A stretch of DNA of 64,000 nucleotides from Nitrospirota bacterium (GCA_029858565.1 JAOUEV010000003.1:49967-113966), one strand, 5' to 3'. Shown: positions 34,455-38,994, counted from the first letter of the stretch. A program made the numbers and translations. The notes: generated by a model not told the origin, from the letters alone.

Positions 34455-36149
<1,695 letters not shown>

Positions 36150-36198
36150 GGACGTGACACGTGATGCGTATGACGTGGAGCGTAAGGGGTACGGGGAA

Positions 36199-36453
36199 AT
36201 GCAGGAGCAGGACCTAGCGAAGATCAGAGCAATCATAGAAGAGCGGAACGTCCGTTATGCTCCCAAGGGAGGCAGCGTTACCCTTGCGGGTATCGAGGGC
36301 GGGACCGTGAAGATCGCGCCTGCGGGATTCTGCTGGCGGTGACATGTGACCCGTATAGCCCTGGTCGAGGGCTTGCAGGAAAAGTTGAAAAAGGAGTTTC
36401 CCTGGGTTGAACAGGTCATTGTGATCAACCTGGATAAGACAAAAAAAGCTTGA
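36199..36453 (+). CDS. NifU C-terminal-domain protein with in-frame UGA (putative CxxU selenoprotein, 84 aa)
   Basis: GGSVTL...GTVKI...GFCWR[TGA 36340-42]HVTRIALVEGLQEKLKKEFPWVEQV aligns with NifU GG..G.CxxC...T....G.E..L....P.V..V. Confidence 0.75.
36357..36373 (+). promoter_or_regulatory. Candidate bacterial SECIS hairpin
   Basis: AGCCCT-GGTCG-AGGGCT; G-initiated loop begins 21 nt after the UGA. Confidence 0.6.
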
Positions 36454-36478
36454 ATTTCAAGGACAAAGTTCCTATAAT
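36450..36478 (+). promoter_or_regulatory. Sigma70-type promoter
   Basis: TTGAAT-17 bp-TATAAT upstream of ORF 36508. Confidence 0.6.
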
Positions 36479-36507
36479 TAAATTCGTCATCGGAGGGAGC
36501 GCAACCC

Positions 36508-36735
36508 ATGGACGAGTCTATCAAGATCTCGCTTACGCCCCAGCAGAGCGCGGAGATCAAGAAACAGATCGGATTCGAACTTACCGAGATATACCTCACC
36601 AAACGTTCACTGAACAAGCTTCGTGTCTTCCGGCTGCGCCTGAGCGAGGAACAGCAGGAGCAGATCACCGAGGCTTGGGGTCAAAAGGTGAAAGAATTGA
36701 CCGTGACCCGCTCAGTCGCCACCCGGATAATGTAA
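36508..36735 (+). CDS. Small hypothetical protein with two-fold internal repeat
   Basis: GGAGG RBS and own promoter; ISLTPQQSAEIKKQIGFELTEI vs LRLSEEQQEQITEAWGQKVKEL. Confidence 0.7.
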   Translation: MDESIKISLTPQQSAEIKKQIGFELTEIYLTKRSLNKLRVFRLRLSEEQQEQITEAWGQKVKELTVTRSVATRIM

Positions 36736-36814
36736 TTGAGAGAATGATCGCGCCGCGCAAGGGGCGCGCAGGTTTATTGTTGGTCCAGACCGAATGCGAA
36801 GGGAGGTGATTCCT

Positions 36815-37015
36815 GTGAAAAAGGCATTTTCGCTCCTGCTTTCATTGGTTATTGTTGCTACATTTGTCATGATCGGCTGTGAGAAGAAGCCCGAACCCCC
36901 GAAGCCGGCCCCGGCTCCGGCGGTAACGCCTCCTCCACCGCCCCCGGCTCCGGCACCTGCTCCGGCTCCCGCGCCGAAGCCTGCCCCGGCCCCCGCAAAA
37001 CCGGCAAAGAAGTAG
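36815..37015 (+). CDS. Small Pro/Ala-rich lipoprotein
   Basis: GGAGGTGA RBS, GTG start, MKKAFSLLLSLVIVATFVMIG-C lipobox, PAPAP tail. Confidence 0.8.
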   Translation: MKKAFSLLLSLVIVATFVMIGCEKKPEPPKPAPAPAVTPPPPPPAPAPAPAPAPKPAPAPAKPAKK

Positions 37016-37050
37016 CGGTCCGCGGGATGTACAGTATGGCGATCAGCTCA

Positions 37051-37077
37051 AGGCCCCCATATGGGGGCCTTTTCTTT
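37051..37077 (+). terminator. Rho-independent terminator
   Basis: AGGCCCCC-ATAT-GGGGGCCT followed by TTTCTTT. Confidence 0.85.
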
Positions 37078-37197
37078 CGATGGTGTCGGTGGGAGTCCGA
37101 CTTGGAAGCAGTGGAAACCGGGATGCCGGAGGGTGTGATGCTCCGGGACCACGGTGTCCCTTGCTGGCAGTCTCTACGCGAACGTGCGGGAATCCCT

Positions 37198-38994
37198 ATG
37201 AACAAACTGACAACGGACATTCTGTGCGATATCCTGCTCAAAGCCAAGGAGATCACGGCCGAACAGGCGCGGGAGATCAAGCTCAAACAGGACCATCAGC
37301 GCATGAAGATCCTGCGCTCCCGGGGCGAATCGGTCCACCGCGGCAGGGTGCATCTCGAGGAGGAGGTGTCGGCCATCGAGGTCGCGGCATCCTTTGAATT
37401 TCCGTCAGCGGCTGCAGCAGGAAGGGTGCTGAACGAGGACACGGTGACCGAGATCGTGGCTCGCCACGCGGGCCTGCCCTTTCGCAAGATCGACCCCCTG
37501 AAGCTCAATCCGGAGATAATCACCCAGATCCTGTCCCGGGCGTTCGCCCGAAAGAACACCGCCGTTCCCATCGAGCGGACCGACGACCAGCTCGTTGTTG
37601 CCGTCGCCGATCCCTACAACCTCGAAGTGGTCGAGAACATCGGGCGCATGGGCTACAAGGTGGCGCGTGTCATGTCGCCCAAATCGGACCTGGTCAAGAT
37701 CATCACCGAGTTCTACGGATTCCGTTCGTCGGTGAGCGCCGCCGCCAAGGAGATCTCCGGCGAGGTGGACCTGGGAAACCTCGAGCAGTTCGTCAAGATG
37801 AAGGCCGTGTCCGAGATCGAGGCCACGGACAAGCATATCGTGAACGCCGTGGAGTTCCTGTTCCGGTACGCTTTTGACCAGCGGGCAAGCGACATCCACA
37901 TCGAGCCAAAACGGGAGACCTCGGAAGTGCGCCTCCGGATCGACGGAATGCTCCATTCGATCCACAAAGTGCCCCGCCAGATCCACCCGGCGCTCGTTTC
38001 CCGCGTCAAAATGCTGTCGCGCATGGATATCGCCGAGAAGCGCAGGCCCCAGGACGGACGCATCAAGACCGAGTACAAGGGCAGGGAGGTCGAGCTTCGC
38101 GTGTCGACCATGCCGGTCGCGTTCGGCGAGAAGGTCGTGGTCAGGATCTTCGATCCCGATGTGCTGCTCCAGGACCTGGAAGAGCTGGGATTCGCGCCCC
38201 GGGAATATGAGCTTTTCCGTTCGTTCATTGCCCGGCCCCACGGCATCGTGCTGGTGACCGGGCCGACGGGAAGCGGCAAGACCACGACGCTCTACTCGGC
38301 GCTCAAGACCATTGCCGTGCCGGAAGTGAACGTGGTCACCATCGAGGACCCGATCGAAATGGTCCATGACCGGTTCAACCAGGTGGCGGTCCAGCCCCAG
38401 ATCGGGGTGACCTTCGGCAGCACGCTCAGGACGATCCTCCGCCAGGACCCGGACATCATCATGGTGGGCGAGATCCGGGACCTGGAAACCGCAGAGAACG
38501 CGGTGCAGGCAGCCCTGACCGGCCACCTGGTGTTCTCCACGCTGCATACGAACGACGCGGCGAGCGCTGTGACACGGCTCCTGGACCTCGGTCTCCCCGC
38601 CTATCTGATAGCATCGACCGTGATCGGGATCATGGCCCAGCGGCTGGTCCGCAAGGTGTGCAAACATTGCGAGCGGACCTATGAGCTGCTGCCCGAGGAG
38701 GCTGAAGCGGTCGGGCTCACGTCGGACTCGCGCAAGCCGGTGACGGTGAAATACGGCGAAGGATGCGCGCAGTGCCGGGGAACGGGCTACCTGGGCAGAA
38801 GCGGCATCTACGAAGTCATGGAAGTGAACGAGAAAGTACGCCCGCTCATCACCGAGAAGGTGGATGCAGACCGCATTAAAAAGACCGCTGTCGGCGACGG
38901 CATGGTTACCCTGCGCGCGGCGGCGGTGCACAAGATGATTGAGGGTGAGACCACCTTTGACGAGGTCATCCGGGTAACAGGGGAGAAGATTTGA
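37198..38994 (+). CDS. GspE/PilB family secretion ATPase
   Basis: ASDIHIEP, PQDGRI, GPTGSGKTTTLY, LRQDPD, STLHTN, tetracysteine motif. Confidence 0.93.
   Translation: MNKLTTDILCDILLKAKEITAEQAREIKLKQDHQRMKILRSRGESVHRGRVHLEEEVSAIEVAASFEFPSAAAAGRVLNEDTVTEIVARHAGLPFRKIDPLKLNPEIITQILSRAFARKNTAVPIERTDDQLVVAVADPYNLEVVENIGRMGYKVARVMSPKSDLVKIITEFYGFRSSVSAAAKEISGEVDLGNLEQFVKMKAVSEIEATDKHIVNAVEFLFRYAFDQRASDIHIEPKRETSEVRLRIDGMLHSIHKVPRQIHPALVSRVKMLSRMDIAEKRRPQDGRIKTEYKGREVELRVSTMPVAFGEKVVVRIFDPDVLLQDLEELGFAPREYELFRSFIARPHGIVLVTGPTGSGKTTTLYSALKTIAVPEVNVVTIEDPIEMVHDRFNQVAVQPQIGVTFGSTLRTILRQDPDIIMVGEIRDLETAENAVQAALTGHLVFSTLHTNDAASAVTRLLDLGLPAYLIASTVIGIMAQRLVRKVCKHCERTYELLPEEAEAVGLTSDSRKPVTVKYGEGCAQCRGTGYLGRSGIYEVMEVNEKVRPLITEKVDADRIKKTAVGDGMVTLRAAAVHKMIEGETTFDEVIRVTGEKI

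Follow-up and report, generated by a model that had tools for sequence, protein, structure and literature searches.

Proteins of the NifU/Nfu family are known as carriers of iron–sulfur (Fe–S) clusters, Nfu proteins serve radical-SAM clients, and the NFU C-terminal domain has thioredoxin-like activity. Bacterial SECIS hairpins carry a G (GU) in the apical loop and are spaced roughly 16–37 nt from the UGA, with E. coli fdhF as the type for comparison. For selenocysteine (Sec) in an Fe–S carrier family, the consulted parts of the 2022 and 2026 selenoproteome reviews list a single precedent, the HesB-like selenoprotein (motif UxGP in the review table), which is unrelated to the protein described here.

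The locus analysed lies in a 64,000-nucleotide stretch of DNA from a Nitrospirota bacterium (GCA_029858565.1 JAOUEV010000003.1:49967-113966; hereafter the window), on contig C62 of a 3.92-Mb assembly in 144 contigs that is 100% complete by marker genes. We put at about 0.9 the probability that it encodes one 84-residue Sec-containing Nfu protein (Sec-Nfu; Table 1), the UGA-48 of which would be decoded through SelB and a SECIS hairpin; this figure covers identity and decoding mechanism, with function excluded. Selenocysteine would in that case sit in the Nfu Fe–S carrier family at the residue that normally ligates the cluster.

Table 1. Features of the Sec-Nfu locus and its downstream neighbours, in window coordinates.
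Feature	Position	Strand	Description	Evidence
Possible Shine–Dalgarno sequence AAGGGG	36184..36189	+	9 nt before ATG 36199	By eye from sequence only
Probable Sec-Nfu coding sequence	36199..36453	+	84 codons and stop, UGA-48 read as selenocysteine	Translation, Pfam, ortholog alignment
Cys45, codon TGC	36331..36333	+	Opens the C-W-R-U motif	Invariant in 30/30; matches first Cys of CxxC in 2z51 and 1xhj
Probable Sec48, in-frame TGA	36340..36342	+		Column identical across 31 loci
Possible lower-stem extension GUA...UGC	36353..36376	+	Not conserved in alignment	Single-sequence fold, window's sequence only
Probable SECIS hairpin core	36357..36373	+	Stem AGCCCU/AGGGCU, loop GGUCG from +21 after UGA	Covariation, RNAalifold, third-position dip
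Promoter-like site TTGAAT-17-TATAAT	36450-36478		Before the 75-residue ORF; −35 hexamer overlaps Sec-Nfu stop
Terminal TGA stop	36451..36453	+	No SECIS-type hairpin behind; overlaps −35 hexamer of next gene's promoter-like site
75-residue ORF	36508-36735	+	No Pfam or NCBIfam match	72–89% identity among f1
73-residue ORF	36794-37015	+	Pro/Ala-rich
T2SSE/MshEN secretion or pilus ATPase gene	37027-38994		Downstream of the 73-residue ORF

A NifU-domain frame continuing through TGA

Under translation table 11, the open reading frame at 36154-36342 terminates as ...AGFCWR-TGA. A first-pass annotation, made from the sequence alone, had pointed out that the frame stays open for 36 codons beyond this TGA, that these codons complete a NifU C-terminal domain and that the UGA falls at the second Cys of a CxxC motif, and all three points were borne out. 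Translated with TGA as U from the ATG at 36199 (aligned with the Met of several orthologs), the frame reads MQEQDL...AGFCWR-U-HVTRIALVEGLQ...KTKKA, that is, 47 residues, U48 and 36 codons before the terminal TGA. NifU (PF01106) was the sole match in a Pfam search of the read-through protein, scoring 38.2 bits (gathering cut-off 27; E 1.6e-9) and running across the TGA from residue 10 to residue 74 (profile positions 2-67 of 67). In the C-x-x-C ligand pair of this domain the first Cys is kept and the second site is the UGA, corresponding to Sec, the selenium analogue of Cys; in the family-profile alignment, C45 and U48 fall on the CxxC of the solved Nfu domains 2z51 and 1xhj.

Structure prediction gave a concordant picture. 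AF2 run on a 30-sequence alignment (pLDDT 78.1, pTM 0.61) yielded a helix-strand-strand-helix-strand arrangement (H3-23, E26-33, E36-42, H46-66, E72-75) that, because the second helix is predicted to span 46-66, places C45 and U48 at the start of that helix. The best Foldseek matches in the PDB were 2z51 (E 8.2e-5, TMq 0.69) and 2m5o (TMq 0.73, rmsd 1.8), further matches (1veh, 1xhj, 2jnv and 1th5) were all Nfu domains, and the family profile searched against PDB sequences returned the same entries, with 2z51 at 1.4e-10. As modelled, Sec-Nfu has the Nfu fold.

Among 401 Nitrospirota genomes searched at a threshold of E≤1e-12, 34 (the window's genome included) had a match, and every one of these 34 matches held one in-frame TGA. 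The matches fell in three taxonomic families, namely f1, to which the window belongs (23 of 63 genomes besides the window's own), f13 (3 of 5) and f24 (7 of 14), with none in the other Nitrospirota families of the sample. At the 31 loci that were read (G381, G281 and G169 were left out), the motif G-[FYL]-C-[WY]-[RQS]-U-H-x-T-R-x-x-L-V was present throughout, with the TGA in a single column that was invariant in all 31 aligned sequences although nearby synonymous sites vary. A nearer set of 61 genomes (60 relatives and the window's own) held, besides the window's copy, 15 full-length f1 matches at 52–70% identity, each again with one in-frame TGA, and a sixteenth f1 copy (in G031) broken by a frameshift ahead of the motif; a contig scan with a single Sec-Nfu protein gave two loci, duplicates of G002 and G012. 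Four weaker matches with one TGA (G038, G055, G015 and G048) were all excluded from the counts; in the first three, which were read, the TGA proved to be the terminal stop of a canonical CxxC Nfu (GACGSCPMS type) and not a Sec codon.

Coding constraint extended well past the TGA. Orthologs of 40–68% identity could be aligned end to end, there were no indels across the TGA, and 8 of the 14 columns invariant among 30 sequences (I9, G25, P41, G43, C45, U48, H49, T51, R52, L55, V56, W69, V70 and V75) lie beyond it (H49 onwards). Mean pairwise differences at codon positions 1/2/3, which were 0.313/0.287/0.55 before the TGA and 0.308/0.172/0.486 after it, show that the coding signature persists. Two checks proposed with the first-pass annotation were thereby answered: no close homolog had TGC or TGT in place of the TGA (34 of 34 matches, and the same column in 31 of 31 loci), and conservation beyond the UGA was strong, with eight invariant residues.

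Alternatively, the in-frame TGA might reflect an error of sequencing or assembly, a nonsense mutation of recent date or reassignment to a standard amino acid; all that can be cited for this is that the TGA occurs in an assembly of MAG quality with 144 contigs. Against it, 34 genomes from three families share this TGA. In addition, contigs from two other DNA samples cross the site (X2 record 12, 36219-36559; X3 record 21, 36301-36544) and list no changed letter at 36340-36342 (an unlisted position is not proof of identity, although both contigs cover the site), the changes beside the TGA, 36339 G>C and 36345 T>C, both being at synonymous third positions. TGA is also the commonest terminator of open frames of at least 400 codons in this genome (697 of 1,449) and ends Sec-Nfu itself, which excludes general reassignment. 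We consider error, mutation and reassignment effectively refuted. Metatranscriptome run X18 (word share 0.05) does not cover 36020-36811 and is uninformative on expression either way.

The machinery for selenocysteine that the first-pass annotation had suggested looking for (selA, selB, selC and selD) is all present in the window's genome. The tRNA-Sec scored 64 bits, above the Rfam cut-off, and was called tRNA-SeC(tca) by ARAGORN; selA (604 bits) adjoins selB (389 bits); and there are two copies of selD and three fdhA-like genes, each of the five with an in-frame TGA. The genome is rich in selenoproteins. Its selD and fdhA-like loci (genome G000) lie at C3:2376-3290, C14:90529-91446, C41:35343-37343, C7:6454-8460 and C24:36982-37425. 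Across the wide sample, selA turned up in 191 of 401 genomes, among them 31 of the 34 Sec-Nfu carriers; it was not found in carriers G009 (96% complete) and G005 (89% complete), and in carrier G036 it is in frameshifted pieces. Two genomes of lower completeness in few contigs, G031 (71%) and G036 (77%), have the frameshifted Sec-Nfu (L027) and the frameshifted selA (G036:C10:284212-285600), frameshifts that may be assembly indel errors instead of real decay.

The hairpin behind the UGA

The hairpin AGCCCT/GGTCG/AGGGCT that had been proposed as a SECIS element, with its loop 21 nt after the UGA, was found in its place. Considered alone, the window's hairpin folds no better than chance (z = 0.17; 99 of 200 shuffles were equally or more stable), and single-sequence folding energy was dropped as SECIS evidence; any significance of the hairpin comes only from comparison across genomes. 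That comparison used an alignment of 31 sequences and 60 columns, with the TGA at columns 10-12 and the helix at columns 27-32/38-43. RNAalifold returned the identical helix from 16 and from 31 sequences, and 92.5% of its 186 cells were paired. Half of the six pairs were changed on both sides, with counts of AU 12, GC 9, GU 2 and UA 1 for pair 27-43, GC 28, AU 1 and GU 1 for pair 28-42, and CG 23, AU 2 and GC 1 for pair 29-41. Column shuffles reached the observed value in 0 of 500 trials on four of five measures and in 10 of 500 on the fifth, statistics that overstate independence, given related sequences, a coding region of conserved residues and a structure predicted from this very set. With the 3' partner displaced by −1 or +1 column, pairing was lowered to 57.5% or 75.3%. 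Most of the unpaired cells came from five f13/f24 sequences, in which RNAfold moved the helix by one position and left an A bulged.

Variation at third codon positions fell to 0.236 in the six hairpin codons, versus 0.596 before and 0.546 after them, as predicted for an RNA structure overlapping coding sequence. The genome's own selenoprotein genes offered an independent check: in selD1 a 7-bp stem bears the loop AGGUC, with its GGU at +21, in fdhA1 and fdhA2 the loop is GGUCU, with its GGU at +19, and selD2 and fdhA3 have other folds, so that loop type and spacing are common to three of the five reference genes. The Sec-Nfu hairpin, with loop GGUCG at +21, has the layout of a bacterial SECIS.

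Database records, distribution and gene neighbourhood

The suggestion that annotation pipelines would truncate this protein is supported by the public record. Among 5.8 billion clustered proteins there were 17 matches, every one of 46–63 residues and covering 53–55% of the query. Searched with a profile, 1.84 billion representatives yielded 376 matches at E≤1e-3, of which the 12 at E≤1e-10 were all confined to approximately profile positions 1-46, the part before the TGA. The best 150 of the 376 comprised 128 canonical GxCxxC proteins, 13 pieces ending in GxCxx (cut at the TGA), 2 C-terminal pieces starting with xTRxxLV, 1 frameshifted piece, 1 contig-cut piece and 5 other variants; a Cys form of the Sec-Nfu subfamily was found 0 times among these best 150 of the 376 matches. 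Half-length pieces scored 60–74 bits and the top full-length match 50.6 bits; a Cys ortholog would have ranked first. Cys lines up with Sec only in canonical Nfu, within the wider domain family. The pieces are named "hypothetical protein" or, for some of 49 residues, "Fe-S cluster biogenesis protein NfuA". One 421-residue protein unrelated to Nfu (P0172) is filed with 49-residue Sec-Nfu pieces in a cluster made at 90% identity, a membership that looks like a clustering artefact.

Curated models and the literature were likewise silent. In NCBIfam, Sec-Nfu scored far under the cut-offs of NfuA (TIGR03341, NF008392) and NifU (TIGR02000), at 19.5, 18.1 and 15.7 bits against 268–273, and, as a single domain, it lacks the architecture of the NfuA and NifU equivalogs. 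Since the NCBIfam matches are all below threshold, no curated NCBIfam model describes Sec-Nfu; whether the family was already catalogued, which the first-pass annotation had left open, was answered in the same sense by the two selenoproteome reviews. In the available part of the 2026 prokaryotic review the terms NifU, Nfu and PF01106 occur 0 times, the family is likewise absent from the available part of the 2022 review, and literature searches on NifU selenoproteins and on Nitrospirota selenoproteins, with subscription-only papers outside their scope, returned nothing relevant. As a selenoprotein gene Sec-Nfu is well supported, and it represents a new family, absent from the consulted parts of these reviews. 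Every database entry found for it is mis-annotated, and an annotation rule would repair the gene in its carriers (34 of the 401 sampled Nitrospirota genomes). That no Cys ortholog was found among these matches also makes Sec-Nfu a clean system for asking what selenium can do and sulfur cannot, whether in cluster binding or in redox chemistry.

In family f1 the gene order, from 23 distinct loci, is proS, Sec-Nfu, the 75-residue ORF, the 73-residue ORF and the T2SSE/MshEN ATPase gene, the set being incomplete at some loci, where a contig ends or a neighbour has been lost. Always next to Sec-Nfu in f1, the 75-residue ORF was considered as a functional partner and rejected: it occurs independently of Sec-Nfu (in 60 of 63 f1 genomes, regardless of the 23 of 63 with Sec-Nfu, and in 0 genomes of the other Nitrospirota families sampled) and has its own promoter-like site. 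The product of the 73-residue ORF resembles a lipoprotein, with a hydrophobic N-terminus followed by a Cys, and has a long tail rich in Pro, Ala and Lys; Pfam gave no match, and conservation across f1 loci is weak.

Four f1 genomes without Sec-Nfu have only 118–230 nt between proS and the 75-residue ORF. In G014 and G035 this gap holds decayed Sec-Nfu remnants (L065 of G014, 2060-2256; L064 of G035, 770-1015), recognisable by a C-terminal ...EEQIIVV-like stretch and by an H-V-T-R stretch followed by a stop. These remnants point to loss of Sec-Nfu in G014 and G035, not to original absence.

Such remnants, together with the database pieces, are also what could be cited for taking the TGA as a real stop, whether of a truncated or decaying gene or of the first of two small ORFs (47 aa, and 35 aa from the GTG at 36346): gene callers cut here, all 17 database matches are 46–63 aa long, C-terminal VTR... 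pieces are called separately, and decay is documented in G014 and G035. However, true remnants look different, with extra stops and a lost frame, whereas at the loci in question both pieces are always in frame, with no indel, and jointly make up a single Pfam domain and a single predicted fold. A real stop would also have to be reconciled with a TGA that is invariant in 31 of 31 sequences while adjacent synonymous sites vary, and with a conserved, covarying hairpin behind it. We therefore regard a real stop as very improbable, and favour read-through of the TGA as selenocysteine.

Families f13 and f24 offer a different neighbourhood. At five loci (L053–L056 and L059), Sec-Nfu lies downstream of a same-strand radical-SAM gene, the L055 copy of which scored 289 bits to TIGR01212 (MnmL/YtqA tRNA-modification enzyme) and the L053 copy of which matched Pfam radical-SAM domains. 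The radical-SAM gene directly adjoins Sec-Nfu in f13; in the f24 loci L055 and L056 the two are separated by a complete nitroreductase gene of opposite strand, and Sec-Nfu is followed by a TIGR00725/SLOG gene in L055 and a similar ORF in L056. Linkage to a radical-SAM gene is absent in family f1, the window included, and the MnmL of the window's genome is on contig C9. As a pointer to function, the MnmL linkage is a weak hint.

Candidate functions and comparison with known systems

In the mechanism that we propose, UGA-48 would be decoded as selenocysteine by SelB and Sec-tRNA(Sec), as directed by the hairpin within the coding sequence, its GGUCG loop 21 nt after the UGA. The product would present C45-W-R-U48-H where strand 2 meets helix 2, in place of the G-A-C-x-x-C-P of canonical Nfu. 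In a putative dimer, a [4Fe-4S] cluster could be bridged by Cys45 and Sec48 of two subunits and handed on to clients, for example radical-SAM proteins.

Given a selenoprotein, we would place not far below even odds the possibility that Sec-Nfu acts as an Nfu-type Fe–S carrier with Sec as a cluster ligand. The framework G-x-C-x-x-U-x-x-T is kept, with T51 and L55 aligned to the S/T and L of canonical Nfu, carrying clusters is what the family is known for, and a radical-SAM gene is a neighbour in f13 and f24. Speaking against a carrier are the bulky W/Y and R that replace small residues between the ligands, the invariant His that replaces the Pro after the second ligand, the lack of a radical-SAM link in f1, and the evolutionary distance from canonical Nfu, a paralog of which (GACGSCPMS) is retained in the same genome (C74:114642-114827). 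In a tree of 30 Sec and 15 canonical rows (the latter cut to their last 78 residues; frameshifted L027 and duplicates L044 and L045 left out), the two groups were split by a long branch with support 100/100.

Several of these features would fit another chemistry for the same selenoprotein, in which Cys45 and Sec48 form a selenenylsulfide redox centre of a thiol/selenol oxidoreductase or persulfide reductase; this too seems a real possibility, if clearly short of an even chance. The CxxU pair lies at the N-terminus of the modelled helix 46-66, and the Sec is surrounded by His49 and Arg52, both invariant, and by Trp46 and Arg47, both nearly so, instead of the Gly/Ser/Pro of cluster-binding Nfu. 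The long branch and the retained canonical paralog are consistent with such a departure, and the available part of the 2026 review describes many uncharacterised selenoproteins as resembling thiol oxidoreductases or carrying UxxC/CxxU. However, a purely redox role has been demonstrated for none of the PF01106 members checked, the ligands keep their framework, G-x-C-x-x-C/U-x-x-[ST], and the gene for a [4Fe-4S] radical-SAM protein is a neighbour in two of the three families.

Taking the two chemistries together, we tentatively propose, as a conjecture we hold to be rather less likely than not, that Sec-Nfu represents an obligately selenium-dependent branch of Nfu, the selenolate of which either ligates a [4Fe-4S] cluster for radical-SAM clients (for example, MnmL) or serves a Cys-Sec redox or persulfide enzyme. 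If true, the former would be a selenium-coordinated carrier with altered lability or redox potential, and the latter would be a redox or persulfide chemistry not described for the Nfu fold.

Compared with described systems, the HesB-like selenoprotein (TIGR01911) is likewise small, belongs to an Fe–S-biogenesis carrier family (as an A-type relative) and occurs with Sec, but it is unrelated to Sec-Nfu in fold and family and has a different motif; TIGR01911 had no match to Sec-Nfu at E≤1, and its best match in the window's genome was elsewhere, below the cut-off and with no TGA. The CxxU/UxxC redox selenoproteins (SelW-like, AhpD-like and Trx/Grx-like) are also small, have a CxxU derived from CxxC and use a bacterial SECIS, but the predicted fold of Sec-Nfu is not thioredoxin-like. 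The SECIS elements of selD1, fdhA1 and fdhA2 in the window's genome resemble that of Sec-Nfu in being intra-ORF hairpins directly 3' of the UGA, with a 5-nt loop carrying GGUC at +19 to +21, whereas the Sec-Nfu stem is short (six conserved pairs) and shifts register in f13 and f24. The canonical Cys-type Nfu proteins (Arabidopsis CnfU 2z51, the human NFU1 C-terminal domain 2m5o, S. epidermidis 1xhj and the C74 paralog) are like Sec-Nfu in domain, fold, ligand positions and size (about 75–85 residues) but are only about 30% identical to Sec-Nfu, stand across a long branch with 100/100 support, and have the motif G-A-C-x-x-C-P-x-S where Sec-Nfu, with UGA/Sec as the second ligand, has G-[FY]-C-[WY]-R-U-H-x-T-R.
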